Assembly: GCA_964507835.1 (NCBI GenBank)
Contig: CAZDQZ010000001.1
Location: 2,584 to 31,400, forward strand
Direction of reading: 5' to 3'
DNA length: 28,817 nt
Origin: an uncultured Candidatus Peribacteria bacterium
Lineage (GTDB): Bacteria; Patescibacteriota; Gracilibacteria; Peribacterales; Peribacteraceae
Below are positions 3,132-19,831 of this stretch, in pieces (the first letter of the stretch is position 1; each line of letters opens with the position of its first letter). Under the pieces are notes generated by a model that ran no database searches, was not told the DNA's origin, and was given only the letters and a program-made list of their open reading frames with translations. Both the position numbers and the translations under genes were made by a program.

Positions 3132-3935
3132 ATGAAGCCAATACTTCTCTGCTTACACGGCTGGGGTGGCTCCAAACAATCATTCGCCGAACTCCGTACG
3201 GCACTCAAGAACGACGATATCGAAATCCTCACACCGGACCTGCCTGGGTTTGGTAGTGAACCAGAGCCAACACGACCATGGACGAATGATGACTATGCGG
3301 ATTGGGTAGAGAACTGGCTTAAAAAAAGCGGAAAGCTGGAAGCGATAAGCGGGAAGCTCTACCTCCTTGGACATTCTCATGGTGGAAGAATTGCACTGAA
3401 ACTTGCAAACAGAGAATCAGTCACAAGTCACAAGTCACAAGTCACAAGTAAACTACGTACTCATAGCTCACAGCTCATAGCTCATAGCTTCCATATCGAA
3501 CATCTCTTTCTCTGTGCTCCCGCCGGCATCCGTCACGCCAGACATTTCAAGCGAATCATCGGACTTCTGCTCGCGAAGACTGGATCATTCTTCCTCGCTA
3601 TTCCTGGGCTCAACATACTCGCCCCCATTGGCAAGAAACTGCTCTACAGGCTCGTCCGTGTGCATGATTACGAAATAGCGAGCCCTGTGATGAGGCAAAC
3701 GATGATCAATGTCGCGCGGGAAGATCTGCGTCCACTCCTCTCTTCCATCGCTCTTCCCACTGATCTCTTCTGGGGGAAAGATGACGGAATGACGCCGTTC
3801 TCCGATGCACTCATCATGGAGAGGGAACTACCGCATGCGACACTGCATGCGTTTGAAGGTGTACGGCACAGAGTGCATCGAGACAAAGCCAGGGAGATTG
3901 CGGAAGTGATACGAGAAAAAATATTAGGTACATGA
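3132..3935 (+). CDS. Alpha/beta-fold hydrolase
   Basis: LHGWGG oxyanion motif, DLPGFG, nucleophile elbow GHSHGG, WGKDD (acid) and C-terminal His (GVRH); carries two heptamer-derived loop segments. Confidence 0.9.
   Translation: MKPILLCLHGWGGSKQSFAELRTALKNDDIEILTPDLPGFGSEPEPTRPWTNDDYADWVENWLKKSGKLEAISGKLYLLGHSHGGRIALKLANRESVTSHKSQVTSKLRTHSSQLIAHSFHIEHLFLCAPAGIRHARHFKRIIGLLLAKTGSFFLAIPGLNILAPIGKKLLYRLVRVHDYEIASPVMRQTMINVAREDLRPLLSSIALPTDLFWGKDDGMTPFSDALIMERELPHATLHAFEGVRHRVHRDKAREIAEVIREKILGT
3326..3360 (+). repeat. 7-bp-periodic degenerate tract (AAGCnnn x5), in-frame in hydrolase
   Basis: AAGCGGA AAGCTGG AAGCGAT AAGCGGG AAGCTCT. Confidence 0.8.
3419..3488 (+). repeat. Bipartite heptamer tandem repeat, in-frame in hydrolase
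   Basis: (AGTCACA)x4 at 3419-3446, a spacer, then TCATAGC TCACAGC TCATAGC TCATAGC at 3461-3488. Confidence 0.95.
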
Positions 3936-4064: not shown

Positions 4065-5693
4065 ATGAGCACATTCAACACTCTCTTCCTCACCCTCACC
4101 GCACTCGCCTGTGTCTCCCCTCTCCTGACACTTCTGCACCTGTGGCAGATGAAGGAGTGGCGGTGGGACAGACTGCTAGATCACCTAAAGACAGAAGGAA
4201 TCTTCATAACTCTCGTGGGCAAAGCACGGTACTTGATTGGTGCCCTGTGGCTCCTGAACGGACTCCTCGTCTTCGCATTCATGAGTCAATCGACTGAAAG
4301 CAGGGATCTGTTCTTCTCCATCTGGTTGCTAATACTCCCAGCACTCCTCGTGATACTAGGAACACTGCAATGGTTCATGAAGAAACAGCCAATGCCTGTC
4401 TGGACTCGCAAAGCTGAGCTCATGTTCGTCGTGAGCATTCTCCTCACGATTGGTGCTGGTGTCCTTGTAATGATATATACGAGTTTTGGCTTCGATAAGC
4501 CAGAAAACATCATTAAGACGAACACTTTTGCGTGGATCACTACCCTCCTTCCCTATCTAGGGTCCTTCTTTGTCGTTCTCTCCTGGCTCCTCCTCCGCCC
4601 CATTGACCTCTTCCTCAAAAATCGAATTCTCGCGCGCGCGAAAGCTCTACGAGCGTCTCATCCGCACCTCATCGTCATCGGCATCACAGGGAGTGTAGGA
4701 AAAACAACAACGAAGGAACTCATCCATCATCTGCTCAAAGACAAAGGAGCTATAGCCACACCACTGCACGTCAATACAGAGATGGGTGTGGCTGGGTGGC
4801 TGTCTTCCGTATTGAAGGACGAACCATATGATTCCACGAGAATCCTCGTCGTCGAGATGGGTGCCTACAGAATCGGAGAAATCGCACTACTCTGTGAGAT
4901 CGCACAACCGACCATTGGCGTCGTAACCTTTGTCGGCAAGCAACACAGCGGACTCTTCGGGGGAGAAGAAGCGATCGCAAAGGCAAAAGGTGAACTCGTG
5001 GCACATCTTCCAAAAAACGGACATGCATTCGTCAATGCTGACAGCCCACTCATCGACCTCCTGCTCAAAGAATCGACAGTGAATCCCATCACCATCGGCT
5101 CAGGCGCAAGCGCTCAGATCGTGGCACTCGATATCGAAGAAACTGGCAAAGGAGTACGGTTTACCACGTTCGATACAACATTCGATGTTCCCCTTGCAGG
5201 GACGCACAACGTCACGAATATTTTGCTCGCGATCGCTACTGCGAAACATCTCGGTGTCGGACTGCCAGAAATCAGACAATCACTCAGAAATTTCACGGCA
5301 TTCGAGCGAACATTCTCCGTACGCCGTGAACACGGCATCACCATTCTTGATAACTCGTATAACTCTTCCGCTGAAAGCGCCGAAGCAGGGATCGATTGGG
5401 CGAAGAGGCAACCCAACAAAGAGAAAATCCTCGTCATGAGTGGCATCATCGAACTTGGAAACGATGAAGAACGTGTGCACCGCATGATCGCCGAGAAAGC
5501 CGTGAAGGTCTTTCAGAAGGTGTACATCACACAAGAACGATTTCTAACCTACTTCAAGCCATTCTTCGGGGAGAGAGCCTCTCTCGTTTCTGCCAAAAAA
5601 CAACCACTATCCTCTGGCGCTCTGCTGGTATGCATGGGACGGATGTCAGGTGAAACAATTGAACGATTCATGCCAGAGAAAAATGAATTATGA
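4065..5693 (+). CDS. murF: UDP-N-acetylmuramoyl-tripeptide--D-Ala-D-Ala ligase with N-terminal TM segments
   Basis: P-loop GITGSVGKTTTKE, VEMGA, LAGTHNVTN, DNSYNS, GIIELG; about 180-aa hydrophobic N-terminus. Confidence 0.85.
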   Translation: MSTFNTLFLTLTALACVSPLLTLLHLWQMKEWRWDRLLDHLKTEGIFITLVGKARYLIGALWLLNGLLVFAFMSQSTESRDLFFSIWLLILPALLVILGTLQWFMKKQPMPVWTRKAELMFVVSILLTIGAGVLVMIYTSFGFDKPENIIKTNTFAWITTLLPYLGSFFVVLSWLLLRPIDLFLKNRILARAKALRASHPHLIVIGITGSVGKTTTKELIHHLLKDKGAIATPLHVNTEMGVAGWLSSVLKDEPYDSTRILVVEMGAYRIGEIALLCEIAQPTIGVVTFVGKQHSGLFGGEEAIAKAKGELVAHLPKNGHAFVNADSPLIDLLLKESTVNPITIGSGASAQIVALDIEETGKGVRFTTFDTTFDVPLAGTHNVTNILLAIATAKHLGVGLPEIRQSLRNFTAFERTFSVRREHGITILDNSYNSSAESAEAGIDWAKRQPNKEKILVMSGIIELGNDEERVHRMIAEKAVKVFQKVYITQERFLTYFKPFFGERASLVSAKKQPLSSGALLVCMGRMSGETIERFMPEKNEL

Positions 5694-5716
5694 ATGAAGA
5701 ATTATGAATTATGATG
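5682..5716 (+). repeat. Heptamer tract (TATGAAT-type x5) containing the murF stop codon
   Basis: AATGAAT TATGAAT GAAGAAT TATGAAT TATGATG. Confidence 0.85.
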
Positions 5717-5732
5717 AAGGAAATCTTTATCT

Positions 5733-5749
5733 GCGGGTCGAAGACCCGC
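5733..5749 (+). terminator. GC-rich hairpin downstream of murF (possible terminator; no U-tract)
   Basis: GCGGGTC-GAA-GACCCGC, perfect 7-bp stem. Confidence 0.45.
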
Positions 5750-5772
5750 GCTCATACTCTACAATATAGAAC

Positions 5773-5807
5773 TTATGACTGAAGACTTGTGACGTATGAC
5801 TTGTGAC
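5773..5807 (+). repeat. Heptamer tract (TTGTGAC-type x5)
   Basis: TTATGAC TGAAGAC TTGTGAC GTATGAC TTGTGAC; TTGTGAC is a reverse-complement permutation of the AGTCACA unit in the hydrolase. Confidence 0.85.
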
Positions 5808-5814
5808 TTCTACG

Positions 5815-5838
5815 AACCCTAACCCAAACCCTAACCCC
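5815..5838 (+). repeat. Hexamer tandem repeat (AACCCn x4)
   Basis: AACCCT AACCCA AACCCT AACCCC. Confidence 0.85.
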
Positions 5839-5846
5839 AAGCCACC

Positions 5847-7085
5847 CTGTCCTCCCCCATCCACCACACCTACGGCCCACACGTCGATCGAGCCACTCTC
5901 TGGCGCTCACTCTCCCTATCGTACAAACCATGGCTCTATCGAAAGGGTCCATCGATCGAGAAGTTACGAAGCGCGCTCAAAGAAAAATTCAATGCATCTG
6001 TGACGCTGTTTTCCTCCGGTCGTGAAGGTCTTCTCGCCCTCCTGCGTGCTCTCGATGTCAGGCCTGGGCAGGAGATCATCGTCCAGGGATACACATGCGT
6101 CGTCGTACCGAATGCGATCCATGCAGCTGGTGCCGTCCCAGTGTACGCCGACATCGATCCAGAAACGCTCAATCTCACACGACAAACTGTGAAAGCCGTG
6201 ATCACCGATCGCACGAAAGCGATCATCTGCCAACATACATTCGGCATCCCCGCTCCGCTCGATGCACTGCGAGAACTGTGTGACGAGAACAATATCATTC
6301 TCATCGAAGACTGTGCACACATCCTGCCCGATGCCAAAGGACCACAAGGAATAGGAATGACCGGAGACTATGCAATCCTGAGTTTTGGGCGAGATAAAGC
6401 TATCTCAGGTATCACAGGTGGTGCCATCGTTGCTCGTAGCCCTGCGGTAGCCGCGATCCTCCGTGAACTAGAGAAAACGGCACTACACCTCTCACTCTGG
6501 ACGATCGGGATGTTGCTCGAGTACCCGTCACGCATGCACTCCATCGTACGTCCGCTCGCAGGCACCATGTTCCTGAAGCCTGTCCTCTGGTTACTTCAAA
6601 GGATGAGGATGATCGTCCCCGTCGTGACTGCAGATGAGAAAGCCGGTCGCATGTCGCCTATTCTCCATAAAATACCGAATGTCTGTTCTGCTCTCGCACT
6701 ACGATCTCTGCAAGCACTCCCCCGTCTCAATGAACGAAGACGCACGCTGACATCATTCTATCTCGCACATGGCAAAAAGCAGTCCTGGCCGATTCCTGAT
6801 GGCATACGAGCCGATATGCCACTCCAGAAATTTCCCATCTTCGTCACGAATGCTCCGGGGAAGCGATCGATCCTCACAAAGGACAACATTCATCTCGATG
6901 ACGGCTGGACGGGGTGCGTTATCTGCCCAGAGAGTGTGTCTCTCGAGGTAGCTGGCTACGAATGGGGCAAGGATCCTCTCGCAGAGCAAGCCTGCAAACA
7001 CATTCTGAATCTACCCACACATCCGACGATGACACTGTACCAGGCACAGATTTTGGCGAAGAAAATTGATACATTACTCAAATAA
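5847..7085 (+). CDS. DegT/DnrJ/EryC1/StrS-family PLP-dependent aminotransferase (start uncertain; probable CTG at 5847)
   Basis: SSGREGL, VPVYADID, QHTFG, IEDCAH, SFGRDKAISGITGG (PLP Lys), LNLPTHP. The frame is open from 5835 and reads protein-like (IHHTYGPHVD...KPWLYRKGPSIEKL) well upstream of the called GTG at 6000. Confidence 0.85.
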   Translation: MSSPIHHTYGPHVDRATLWRSLSLSYKPWLYRKGPSIEKLRSALKEKFNASVTLFSSGREGLLALLRALDVRPGQEIIVQGYTCVVVPNAIHAAGAVPVYADIDPETLNLTRQTVKAVITDRTKAIICQHTFGIPAPLDALRELCDENNIILIEDCAHILPDAKGPQGIGMTGDYAILSFGRDKAISGITGGAIVARSPAVAAILRELEKTALHLSLWTIGMLLEYPSRMHSIVRPLAGTMFLKPVLWLLQRMRMIVPVVTADEKAGRMSPILHKIPNVCSALALRSLQALPRLNERRRTLTSFYLAHGKKQSWPIPDGIRADMPLQKFPIFVTNAPGKRSILTKDNIHLDDGWTGCVICPESVSLEVAGYEWGKDPLAEQACKHILNLPTHPTMTLYQAQILAKKIDTLLK

Positions 7086-7333: not shown

Positions 7334-8476
7334 ATGACCATCACTCAAGCCCTCGATCAACAAGCCTGGGATGCCTTCCTCAGTCGTCAGCAGTACCGCC
7401 CGTTCCTCCAAAGCTGGACTATGGGGGAGGTGTACAGAGACATCGGGCAAGAGCCCGTCAGGATCGAAGCACGGGAAAACAATGAACTAATCGCAATCTG
7501 CTATGCACACGTTGTGCCAGCAAAACGAGGGAGGCATCTCTCGATTCCCTACGGCCCCATCATCGATTCCTCGCTTTCTGATGAACAAAAATCTGAAGTC
7601 CTGTGTGCTCTTACTCATGAACTCCAAAAGCTGGCAAAACAGTTTCAATGCACATTTGTCCGCATGAGTCCTTTTCAATCAATTATCAATTATCAATTAT
7701 CAATTATTCATTCCGTCCCCTCCCCACTCCATCTCCTCGCAGAGCACGTATGGTACGTACCTCTCACCACTCCTGACGCATGGACAAGCGAGATGCGACA
7801 GACGACGTACGATAGTCGATCAGAGGAAGAAATCCTCAAAGAGATGCGTAAAACGACGCGTAACCTCATCCGCAGAGCCGAGAAGGATGGCGTCACCATC
7901 GAGGTATCGACGAATCCTCTCCAAGATCTGGATGATCACTTCATCAGACTGCATGACGAAACACGCAAACGACACAAGTTTACGCCGTACTCCAATGCAT
8001 TCTTCAGAGCGCAGGTGAAGCACTTTGCTCCCCGGAATGAATGCACGGTCTACCTAGCCAAATACCAAGGAGACGTCATCGGAGCATCCGTCCACATGCA
8101 TGCATTCGGCGAAACAAGCTACCACCATGGTGCGAGTTCCAGCAATCATCATAAAATCCCCTCAAGCTATCTCCTGCAGTGGAGAGCAATCCAAGATGCG
8201 ATGAAACGGAAAGATCATGTCTATAACTTCTGGGGAATAGCGCCACGGAGCGATGAGCGATTAGCGATGAGCGATGAGCAAAAAAATGCTGATACACACA
8301 GCTCAAAGCTTACGGCTCAAAGCGTAAAGCACCCCTTCGCCGGTGTCACCCTGTTTAAAACCGGCTTCGGAGGCTCTTTACTCAATCTCCAGCACTGCAT
8401 GGATATCCCTGTTTCAAAAAAGTACTGGCTGACGTACGGGTTTGAAATATTCAGGAAGTGGCGACGAGGATTTTAG
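7334..8476 (+). CDS. FemAB/FemX-family peptidoglycan bridge-formation (aminoacyl-tRNA-dependent) transferase
   Basis: FLQSWTMG, SIPYGP, MRKTTRNLIRRAEKDGV, YHHGAS, LLQWRAIQDA, YNFWGI, GVTLFKTGFGG. Confidence 0.9.
   Translation: MTITQALDQQAWDAFLSRQQYRPFLQSWTMGEVYRDIGQEPVRIEARENNELIAICYAHVVPAKRGRHLSIPYGPIIDSSLSDEQKSEVLCALTHELQKLAKQFQCTFVRMSPFQSIINYQLSIIHSVPSPLHLLAEHVWYVPLTTPDAWTSEMRQTTYDSRSEEEILKEMRKTTRNLIRRAEKDGVTIEVSTNPLQDLDDHFIRLHDETRKRHKFTPYSNAFFRAQVKHFAPRNECTVYLAKYQGDVIGASVHMHAFGETSYHHGASSSNHHKIPSSYLLQWRAIQDAMKRKDHVYNFWGIAPRSDERLAMSDEQKNADTHSSKLTAQSVKHPFAGVTLFKTGFGGSLLNLQHCMDIPVSKKYWLTYGFEIFRKWRRGF
7679..7706 (+). repeat. Perfect heptamer repeat (TCAATTA)x4, in-frame
   Basis: Encodes SIINYQLSII. 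Confidence 0.95.
7785..7819 (+). repeat. Degenerate 7-bp-periodic tract (nnnnCGA x5), in-frame
   Basis: CAAGCGA GATGCGA CAGACGA CGTACGA TAGTCGA, in an apparent insertion before SEEEIL. Confidence 0.65.
8250..8330 (+). repeat. Bipartite, roughly inverted heptamer tract, in-frame
   Basis: GCGATGA GCGATTA GCGATGA GCGATGA, a spacer, then GCTCAAA GCTTACG GCTCAAA GCGTAAA GC. Confidence 0.9.
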
Positions 8477-8543: not shown

Positions 8544-8858
8544 ATGCCCACAAACACTGAATCTAGCTCTGGAACACCGATTGAGAAGAAGCTTGATCTC
8601 ATCATCGCGCACCTAGAAAAAATCGATGCTCGTGATCGGTTGCGCATGTGGGGAGGGTTCATCCGTGGATGCATCGCGATTGTACCGATTGCCTTCCTTG
8701 TCTGGAGTTCGTGGTACTTCGTCCAACATGGTGCAGATCTCATGAAACAAATAACGGATATTGCCGCCTCCTCCGCAGCCAAATATACCCAGACCTCTGG
8801 ACAAGGAATGGTCGATGAACTCATGAAGAAGTATTCATTCCCTGGTGCGACGAAGTAG
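8544..8858 (+). CDS. Small membrane protein, hypothetical
   Basis: ATG at 8544 follows TGcTATAAT (8511-8519); one TM (GFIRGCIAIVPIAFLVWSSWYF). Confidence 0.75.
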   Translation: MPTNTESSSGTPIEKKLDLIIAHLEKIDARDRLRMWGGFIRGCIAIVPIAFLVWSSWYFVQHGADLMKQITDIAASSAAKYTQTSGQGMVDELMKKYSFPGATK

Positions 8859-8925
8859 AGGATGAGGGGGGGTAGAGGATGAGATGATGTAGAGGAGGAG
8901 AGGGAGAGAAGGGTGACGTAGAACG
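8855..8925 (+). repeat. Purine-rich tract with 17-bp period (GTAGAGGAT...)
   Basis: GTAGAG at 8855, 8872 and 8889; includes the upstream gene's TAG. Confidence 0.7.
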
Positions 8926-18979: not shown

Positions 18980-19831
18980 ATGCCCACCTCCGTCGTCTTC
19001 CTCGGCACCTCAGCATTCGCAGTTCCCAGTCTGAAGGCCCTTGCACATGATCCAGAATTCAACGTCGAGCTCGTCATCACACAGCCCGATCGACCGGTCG
19101 GCAGGAAGCAGATCCTCACACCATCCCCTATCAAACTTCTCTCTCGAGAACTAGGTCTACCCATCGCACAGCCCGAAAACATAAATAATTATCAATTCTC
19201 AATTATCAATTATCAATTTCTTGTCGTCGTTTCCTACGGTCAAATCCTCACCCAGAAAATCCTCGATCTCCCGACTATCGCACCCGTGAACCTCCATGCA
19301 TCGCTCCTGCCTCTGCTCCGTGGTGCTTCGCCTCTCCAGAACGCGATTCTGCAGGGCATGAACGAATCCGGTGTTACAGTGCAGAAAATCGTACGGGAGC
19401 TGGATGCCGGCCCCATCCTTGCGCAGACAGTCGTCCCCCTTGATCCGCGCGAAACGTACCAGACTCTCCACGATCGCTTGGCAGTCCTCGGCGCCTCACT
19501 CCTCGTTGAGACGCTGAAGAAACCTCTCACGCCCGTGGAACAAAATACATCGAAAGCGACGGTCTGCAGAAAATTGTCGAAAGATGACGGGGCCATAGAC
19601 CCCCGCACGATGACGGCAGTCGAGATCGATCGACGGGTACGCGCTCTCACGCCGTGGCCAGGCGTCACGATCAACGGCAATCGAATTCTGCGTTCTTCCC
19701 TCGCTCCCAGTGCAGAATCGCTCACAATACTCTGTAAGGATGCAACGGAACTTTCTATCGAACAAATACAACCTGCATCAAGAAAACCAATGTCTGGCAA
19801 AGCATTTTCTCTCGGGCGCACGCTACAATAA
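18980..19831 (+). CDS. fmt: Methionyl-tRNA formyltransferase
   Basis: VFLGTSAFA, VITQPDRPVGR, NLHASLLPLLRGASP, ELDAGPI, RVRALTPWPG; start ATG at 18980. Confidence 0.93.
   Translation: MPTSVVFLGTSAFAVPSLKALAHDPEFNVELVITQPDRPVGRKQILTPSPIKLLSRELGLPIAQPENINNYQFSIINYQFLVVVSYGQILTQKILDLPTIAPVNLHASLLPLLRGASPLQNAILQGMNESGVTVQKIVRELDAGPILAQTVVPLDPRETYQTLHDRLAVLGASLLVETLKKPLTPVEQNTSKATVCRKLSKDDGAIDPRTMTAVEIDRRVRALTPWPGVTINGNRILRSSLAPSAESLTILCKDATELSIEQIQPASRKPMSGKAFSLGRTLQ
19187..19220 (+). repeat. Heptamer tract (AATTATC-type), in-frame in fmt
   Basis: AATTATC AATTCTC AATTATC AATTATC AATTTC, encoding NYQFSIINYQF. Confidence 0.92.

Follow-up and report, generated by a model that had tools for sequence, protein, structure and literature searches.

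Here we analyse a stretch of 28,817 nucleotides (hereafter the window; forward strand of contig CAZDQZ010000001.1, positions 2,584 to 31,400) from an uncultured Candidatus Peribacteria bacterium, in which the gene for an aminotransferase of the DegT/DnrJ/EryC1/StrS family (degT) follows a murF-like Mur ligase gene and lacks a canonical codon at the place where its orthologues start. We put about even odds (a probability of roughly 0.5) on the reading that degT is an intact, expressed gene of 412 codons (5847-7085, forward strand), translation of which would initiate at CTG 5847, or at an adjacent near-cognate codon, behind a leader built from short tandem repeats.

The degT reading frame and its missing start codon

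Read in the DegT frame from ATG 5775, the region upstream of the gene gives MTEDL (closed by TGA 5790), RMTCDFYEP (TAA 5820) and PKP (TAA 5832), after which the frame continues as PQATLSSPIHHTYGPHVDR and meets its first ATG, GTG or TTG only at GTG 6000. The initial annotation of this DNA had listed the three in-frame stops and the lack of a canonical start before GTG 6000, which reading and translation confirm, and had placed a TACAAT box (5760-5765) 9 nt before an ATG in the DegT frame, which matches base for base. That promoter-proximal ATG 5775 now heads a five-codon minigene (5775-5792), whose TGA overlaps GTG 5789, and a second minigene in the same frame (5796-5822, encoding MTCDFYEP) ends 24 nt before CTG 5847. 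No upstream start reads into this frame, and without a change of frame initiation must take place at 5835 or beyond. The earliest near-cognate codon 3' of the final in-frame stop is CTG (5847-5849). The start set of NCBI translation table 11 includes CTG, ATT, ATC and ATA, and with this full set an open reading frame (ORF) is called from that CTG to 7085, encoding 412 aa. Its product matches Pfam PF01041 with 159.9 bits against a cut-off of 19.8 (E 1.3e-46); none of the NCBIfam equivalogs reaches its cut-off, which leaves the assignment at family level.

The closest proteins, of about 410-420 aa, cover 98-99% of the translation begun at 5835, and their N-termini read M-x-S-P-I-H-H-T-[YF]-G-P-H-V-D where the window has L-S-S-P-I-H-H, with CTG 5847 in the methionine column. 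DNA was read at 33 orthologous loci, of which 30 belong to species representatives of the family, and the alignments support the earlier proposal that CTG 5847 occupies the orthologous start position, from which we infer initiation there. ATG, GTG or TTG stands 2-6 codons before I-H-H at the other loci, with a partial exception in one strain recovered from three samples (L001-L003), which has CTG in the same column together with an in-frame ATG 15 codons upstream; the window is the sole locus, among those read, that lacks any canonical start. Most of the family shows the classic coupled layout, an ATGA in which the stop of murF and the ATG of degT overlap. A short tandem-repeat tract lies between the two genes in roughly a third of the loci, and here the degT start is often a GTG or TTG at the tract edge.

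The initial annotation had named two findings that would refute it, namely orthologues beginning at the residue matching GTG 6000, or relatives that lack the repeat block and still have no ATG there. Orthologues reach about 51 residues further N-terminal than the GTG 6000 product, and both protein and DNA alignments agree with its claim that the coding region begins about 51 codons before that GTG; as to relatives without the block, ATG, GTG or TTG is present there, with L001-L003 and their CTG as the exception, so that neither finding is fully borne out. Public gene calls for this locus (P0001, P0122 and P0123) are all 361 aa long and begin at GTG 6000 (6000-6002), dropping 51 conserved residues, and are probably too short by this length. 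Gene callers misplace the start in close relatives too, as P0003 and P0004 are truncated and P0002 is extended. The gene itself is nearly universal, with orthologues found in 116 of the 121 family genomes and one copy found in the genome of the window.

Constraint on the N-terminal segment

In the 416-aa translation begun at 5835, residue 33 corresponds to position 19 of the DegT profile and GTG 6000 to about position 42, the profile beginning some 41 positions before this GTG. Because residues 12-51 align with residues 28-67 of the solved DesI (2po3), a product begun at GTG 6000 would miss part of the fold, and the N-terminal segment of the DegT fold would be complete only with a start at 5847 or close to it. 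The same solved protein aligns its S-F-H-A-T-K with S-F-G-R-D-K of the query, lysine on lysine, and we take the lysine of this S-F-x-x-x-K motif to be the Schiff-base residue that binds pyridoxal phosphate.

Codons 1-51 (5847-5999) have a ratio of non-synonymous to synonymous divergence (dN/dS) of 0.075 against L004, a relative with 85% protein identity, and of 0.11 against L001, compared with 0.07-0.08 for the rest of the gene. On the branch leading to the window, 11.7 non-synonymous and 18.3 synonymous changes fall in these codons, versus 37.8 and 101.2 in the remainder, which is a slightly higher share and far from neutral. All 51 codons are open and keep every family-invariant residue. Strains bearing the repeat block differ by 13 synonymous single-nucleotide polymorphisms (SNPs) and three changed codons in the gene, and the SNPs are clustered at 6482-6617, which may be an imported segment. 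Since the N-terminal codons are constrained, a long-dead N-terminus is unlikely; the pseudogene that had been offered as an alternative is, as a long-standing state, likewise unlikely in light of this constraint and of the mostly synonymous population SNPs.

Stability of the locus across samples

The stretch is present in 20 public runs from 15 studies, mostly of wastewater and activated sludge, and contigs were compared from four of these runs (X2, X4, X7 and X10, of which X2 is an RNA library). A contig of 1298 nt from the RNA library spans 5560-6140 without differences or gaps, as do those of X4 (5665-6076) and X10 (5716-5979) over their lengths, and a 21-nt gap in the X7 contig is the sole length variant among the contigs of the four runs. 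Three independent assemblies (L038, L039 and L040) are identical over 5704-6010 except for one SNP in a hairpin (G>A, in L038); this SNP aside, 5716-5979 is the same in X2, X4, X10 and all three assemblies, and the length of the C5 run is constant in every dataset compared. Because contigs and assemblies agree, neither the CTG nor the C5 run nor any of the three stops is an artefact, and all of them are fixed in this population.

An assembly or homopolymer error, in which an extra C in the C5 run would bring GTG 5803 into frame, was rejected on the grounds that the same sequence recurs in contigs of three other studies and in the three assemblies. Likewise, an alternative genetic code with TGA read as glycine was discarded, as TAA accounts for two of the three stops and TGA terminates murF both here and in L004. 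Spikes of contig depth at 5680-5720 and 5815-5844 in these runs stem from unrelated repeat contigs, which are short and differ by 2-3 mismatches, and are uninformative on degT. Looked for with a 27-nt pattern, neither closer relatives nor an empty allele turned up in JGI metagenomes, and a protein search returned nothing between the cluster of at least 99% identity and 85% identity.

Copy number in the tract before degT is invariant in X2, X4, X10 and L038-L040, and only the neighbouring (ATGAATT)n tract, which spans the murF stop (5683-5714, detected with Tandem Repeats Finder, TRF), varies, by 21 nt or three units; L040 lacks 21 nt of it and the 21-nt gap of the X7 contig falls here too, an indel that leaves the C-terminus of murF unaffected. 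Furthermore, no change in heptamer number can open the DegT frame, because TAA 5820 and TAA 5832 lie in the adjoining hexamer tract. The degT locus is not a classical phase-variable switch.

Start sites in this genome

In the genome of the window (G000; 1.16 Mb, 84% complete), ATG is strongly enriched at leaderless distance from strong -10 boxes: of 81 such ATGs that open long ORFs, 68 lie 6-9 nt after the box, the corresponding peak being weaker for GTG and absent for CTG. Among 153 confident ATG starts, 69 (45%) have a TAnnnT box ending 5-10 nt upstream and only 12 are preceded by a 4-mer resembling a Shine-Dalgarno (SD) motif, while G content falls to 15-17% in the final 20 nt before starts from 25.5% genome-wide. 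A published survey names Ca. Peribacter riflensis as one of the organisms in which the CCUCC anti-SD is not conserved (PMC10783764). The arrangement at degT, TACAAT and ATG 5775 separated by 9 nt, is probably the signature of a former leaderless start; the earlier remark that this spacing resembles that of other genes here fits the common leaderless layout of the genome. CTG as a common leaderless start was rejected, there being no CTG enrichment after -10 boxes.

Initiation factor 3 (IF3) rejects near-cognate start codons. Its C-terminal domain (IF3_C, PF00707) was not found in the 84%-complete genome G000 and is present in 59 of 60 family genomes, which makes an assembly gap the probable cause of its absence; loss of IF3 as the reason for a relaxed start choice was dropped for this reason.

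A genome-wide screen for start-less genes by codon-usage score was noisy and returned mostly antisense shadow ORFs, but recovered prfB and two credible cases. The prfB-like gene for release factor 2 (contig C39, 8899-9939, minus strand) has a start-less 5' part that, judged by the look of its translation, presumably reflects the known programmed +1 frameshift of prfB. A gene for HMG-CoA synthase (contig C126; L042:20-1084) has no ATG, GTG or TTG across its first 95 open codons and shows ATT and then CTG at the column where 14 family orthologues start leaderless with ATG or GTG; 4 nt upstream there is an ATG in another frame, and the position of the gene at the start of a 1.7-kb contig calls for caution. 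The other, encoding a Cys-rich repeat surface protein (contig C108; L043:221-1882), has ATA before a typical signal peptide; TACAAT and a CA-rich leader precede the ATA. Its orthologue in genome G048 (L074) shares AAACCC-ATA-GC and has no canonical start before the membrane helix, and the other orthologues use ATG. As read from these sequences, the ATT and ATA cases add weight to a near-cognate start at degT, and together the three cases suggest that start-codon choice is looser in these SD-poor, leaderless-rich bacteria.

Origin of the repeat block

TRF resolves the region before degT into a part of period 14/7 (5771-5809), which consists of five degenerate heptamers of the RTGACTT type, and a part of period 6/12 (5815-5837). 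Allowing at most one mismatch, AACCCTAACCC occurs three times here, against 0.17 expected in shuffles. The tract can be compared with L004, where 22 of the 25 bases around TACAAT, the box included, are identical and an ATG likewise follows after 9 nt. This homologous ATG of L004 is out of frame and heads a five-codon minigene encoding MTCDL; three heptamers (ATGACTT GTGACTT GTGACTT) are followed by CT-CCC-ATA-CAC-CAC, and the minigene TGA overlaps an in-frame GTG, in the third heptamer, that lies at the methionine column (M-T-S-P-I-H-H) and serves as start. Deleting two of the L004 heptamers brings back ATG-ACT-TCT-CCC-ATA, and the tract therefore seems to have arisen by tandem expansion of the heptamer in which a leaderless start lay.

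The five heptamers of the window amount to 28 nt more than in L004. After GTGACTTCT (5803-5811), identical to the L004 start region, come 44 further nt that L004 lacks (5812-5855), with an AACCCT-type hexamer core at 5815-5837. ATG 5775 is in the DegT frame because 28 and 44 nt add up to 72, and this in-frame position may be a one-in-three coincidence. The 44 nt are of the form 3n+2, which puts GTG 5803, the counterpart of the L004 start codon, one base out of frame at the head of a 66-codon +1-frame ORF (5803-6003), the TGA of which overlaps GTG 6000. TAA 5820 and TAA 5832 close the DegT frame only, and the +1 frame is open through the hexamer tract. Stop and start codons overlap in a chain across the region, namely TGA 5790 with GTG 5789, TGA 5804 with GTG 5803, and TGA 6001 with GTG 6000. 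The initial annotation had envisaged a 72-bp block inserted into the start codon. A repeat block does separate the ATG from the body of the gene, and L004 supports expansion at the start codon, but the block is a composite of 28 nt of heptamers and a 44-nt tract instead of one insertion.

The coding sequence of L004 degT is closest to L001 (synonymous divergence dS 0.28-0.70) and not to the window; its intergenic region, with the TACAAT promoter and the RTGACTT tract, is of the window type, and L001 shares the type of L005. Since these affinities differ between coding and intergenic parts, they suggest recombination at the murF-degT junction. The exact history of the block is blurred, and the order of events below is one that we infer.

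Translation of degT and competing explanations

We propose that degT was, in this clade, once transcribed from a promoter of its own and began without a leader, with the layout TACAAT, 9 nt and ATG. Tandem expansion of the heptamer holding the start codon would have added 28 nt relative to L004, and the AACCCT-type tract a further 44 nt, leaving the body of the gene 72 nt from the ATG with three stops closing the frame. The mRNA would now be leadered, and its start would be selected in a G-poor, unstructured stretch without SD pairing, where the initiator tRNA would read CUG to give a product with the N-terminus (M)SSPIHHTYGPHVDR. Reinitiation by ribosomes leaving the upstream minigenes, the second of which ends close by, possibly contributes. 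The 30 nt 5' of the CTG contain 3% G, and the RNA of 5772-5900 (129 nt) folds with a minimum free energy of -11 kcal/mol, weaker than the mean of its shuffles (z +0.92); a G-poor, unstructured leader of this kind fits the start-site style of an organism without SD use. CUG, AUC, AUU and AUA starts have been reported on leadered Caulobacter mRNAs (PMC8459731).

Several points weigh against initiation at CTG 5847. CTG is not enriched 3' of -10 boxes in this genome, IF3 is encoded nearly throughout the family, and, where bacteria have been tested, near-cognate codons are weak starts, and on leaderless mRNAs very weak ones (PMC8459731). Ribosomes loading at ATG 5775 could also pass via the overlapping GTGA sites, in the +1 frame, to GTG 6000, and the selection signal on the N-terminal codons could largely predate the loss of the start, given the remoteness of the relatives compared and the clustering of the population SNPs in a possibly imported segment. 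A possible, if doubtful, explanation is that the N-terminus is no longer made. The start would then have been lost recently to the repeat expansion, leaving either no product or only the 361-aa protein from GTG 6000, which could come by termination-reinitiation after the 66-codon +1 ORF, and degT would be a young pseudogene or encode a crippled enzyme. Such a recent loss is compatible with the data, as even the nearest relatives, at a dS of about 1.4-1.7, are too far away for the constraint measured against them to date it; a canonical start is indeed absent between 5835 and 6000, the overlapping stop/start chain does lead from the promoter-proximal ATG to GTG 6000, and public gene callers pick this same GTG. 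However, the 51 upstream codons remain open with all family-invariant residues, the changes on the window branch are no more numerous per site there than in the rest of the gene, and residues 12-51 belong to the fold in solved homologues. Moreover, a nearly universal family gene with a single copy found here would be affected, and the architecture is fixed in datasets of several studies with mostly synonymous polymorphism. As for the +1 ORF, its length is ordinary: in 30% of relatives the +1 frame is open for at least 47 codons after I-H-H, and we rejected 5803-6003 as a selected feature because its length is compatible with chance among relatives.

Two further explanations would keep the N-terminus and dispense with the CTG. 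Quite improbable is a start at GTG 5803, from which N-P-N-P-N-P-K-P-P-C-P-P-P would be read in the +1 frame until a -1 shift on a C-run (5835-5838, or 5854-5858 at the Pro-Pro-Pro codons) restored the DegT frame, adding an extension of 15-19 residues. It would make use of the segment shared with the L004 start, of a hexamer tract that is open in +1 and closed only in the DegT frame, and of the 3n+2 length of the 44 nt, which one -1 step would compensate; furthermore, consecutive prolines stall ribosomes, and a P-site tRNA-Pro can, as the sequence reads and by the general rules of P-site slippage, re-pair one base back within the C-run. Against it, no X-XXY-YYZ slippery heptamer is present but only C-runs of 4-5, no stimulatory structure lies downstream (the region folds no better than shuffles), unstimulated slippage is inefficient, the C5 run has the same length in all datasets, and no relative examined needs such a shift. 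The initial annotation had also raised excision or bypass of the block, and this idea has fared worst. Removing or skipping 5778-5849, through RNA excision, bypass of the T4 gene 60 type or DNA excision in a subpopulation, would join ATG 5775, in frame and at leaderless distance from TACAAT, to TCC-TCC-CCC-ATC and yield the orthologue-like M-S-S-P-I-H-H. Neither a shorter allele nor a joined form appears in the contigs of four runs, one of them an RNA library, or in the three assemblies, though rare forms could escape contigs. Signals of the gene 60 type are absent: the take-off ATG and the landing CTG differ, the codon after ATG is ACT and not a stop, and the region is unstructured, with no take-off hairpin. 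In addition, the 72 nt comprise two unrelated repeat expansions, and L004, with its homologous ATG out of frame and an ordinary in-frame GTG available, needs no skipping, all of which makes this explanation hardly credible.

Initiation at CTG 5847 thus remains our preferred reading. A broader version of it, which we consider unlikely, would be that expansion of the heptamer holding a leaderless start turns leaderless genes into leadered ones in the SD-less, leaderless-rich Peribacteraceae, that a cascade of five-codon minigenes with stop and start codons overlapping, like the one in L004, hands ribosomes by reinitiation to the real gene and here to CUG, and that repeat number and start strength together set a low, heritable and evolvable expression of a cell-envelope enzyme. 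The locus offers a natural example of a gene, nearly universal in its family, that has probably lost its canonical start to repeat expansion and yet stays intact and constrained across samples. If translation does begin at CTG 5847, this would bear on the annotation of genomes of the candidate phyla radiation and on how ribosomes choose starts without SD pairing, and would illustrate that a repeat-forming habit carries a cost when a tract arises at a gene boundary.

Neighbouring genes and repeats elsewhere

Among named organisms, the proteins of the window are closest to those of Candidatus Peribacteraceae, which belong to the Peregrinibacteria within the candidate phyla radiation. The gene order in this part of the window is an alpha/beta hydrolase, the murF-like ligase (4065-5693, forward strand; Pfam Mur_ligase_M, NCBIfam murF; its TGA stop lies inside the (ATGAATT)n tract), the DegT-family aminotransferase and a FemAB/FemX-like transferase (7334-8476). 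Between murF and degT lies the GC-rich hairpin that carries the L038 SNP (5733-5749; stem of 7 bp, GCGGGTC-GAA-GACCCGC). It received no terminator score in a terminator scan and was rejected as a terminator, having no T-run after it, not being conserved in L004 and bearing in L038 a G>A change that breaks the stem. A simple sigma-70 scan at the locus did not find a full -35/-10 pair.

Tandem repeats are a general habit of this genome. TRF found 747 non-redundant arrays in the 1.16 Mb, with period 7 the commonest. Of arrays scoring at least 50 there are 147, while a Markov-simulated copy of the genome has 4; the arrays are found both at gene boundaries and, in frame, within genes. Period-7 arrays are often tandem -10-like hexamers plus one base (TAGAATG, TAGTATG, TATCGTA; for instance C3:1693-1725, C54:2104-2136 and C8:17085-17118), which places -10 boxes at intervals of 7 nt, often directly 5' of long ORFs. 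Within the window, in-frame heptamer tracts occur in the alpha/beta hydrolase gene (3419-3489, just after its GHSHGG nucleophile elbow), the FemX-like gene (7678-7707) and fmt (19187-19218), with a TCAATTA-type unit recurring in two unrelated genes. The FemX-like gene also has a 48-nt in-frame stretch (8257-8304), made of a (GAGCGAT)n tract and the sequence following it, that is missing in strain L039; in-gene repeat tracts are polymorphic by whole codons between strains. Just 3' of the same gene (8855-8903) are 2.9 copies of a purine-rich 17-mer of the GTAGAGGATGAGAGGAG type.

Comparison with known systems

A near-cognate CTG start is a known kind of mechanism, of which an origin by repeat expansion at a leaderless start in an SD-less bacterium is likely an unusual variant. 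The infC gene of E. coli, for instance, starts at AUU. With the near-cognate starts on leadered Caulobacter mRNAs, degT shares a one-mismatch codon at the orthologous start of a constrained, intact gene, the leadered mRNA being deduced here. Unlike those starts, it belongs to an organism with almost no SD use and stands behind a repeat-built leader with minigenes, and its use as a start is predicted from sequence.

A second group of comparable systems are contingency loci that vary by slipped-strand mispairing, such as the CTCTT repeats in the leader codons of Neisseria opa genes and the 7-bp repeats in Haemophilus hmw promoters. At degT, as at these loci, a cell-envelope gene has non-triplet repeats that separate its body from the promoter or start, and a neighbouring tract varies between strains. 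In contrast, the degT tract itself is invariant, and the differences found between strains, of 21 nt and 48 nt, all keep the frame.

Mycobacteria are rich in leaderless mRNAs, and termination-reinitiation at overlapping stop/start sites (ATGA/GTGA) is established. Leaderless mRNAs are likewise abundant in Deinococcus deserti (PMC4007540), and many genes of the present genome resemble those of such bacteria in having a -10 box 6-9 nt before the ATG. L004 comes close to termination-reinitiation, as its five-codon leaderless minigene ends in a TGA that overlaps the in-frame degT GTG. The window departs from such systems in that its overlapping sites lead to the wrong frame and the codon at the orthologous start is non-canonical.

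Our search for literature on repeats or start codons in Peribacteria or Peregrinibacteria found nothing specific. The nearest published parallel to heptamers just before start codons are the TAACTGA direct repeats that lie just 5' of start codons in marine Beggiatoaceae, some Cyanobacteria and Bacteroidetes (MacGregor 2015, PMC4679880). In those organisms one specific heptamer is used throughout, whereas here the unit varies from tract to tract (RTGACTT, ATGAATT and many -10-like units). Furthermore, the tracts described here, unlike those, also occur inside genes, and the one before degT itself contains start and stop codons.

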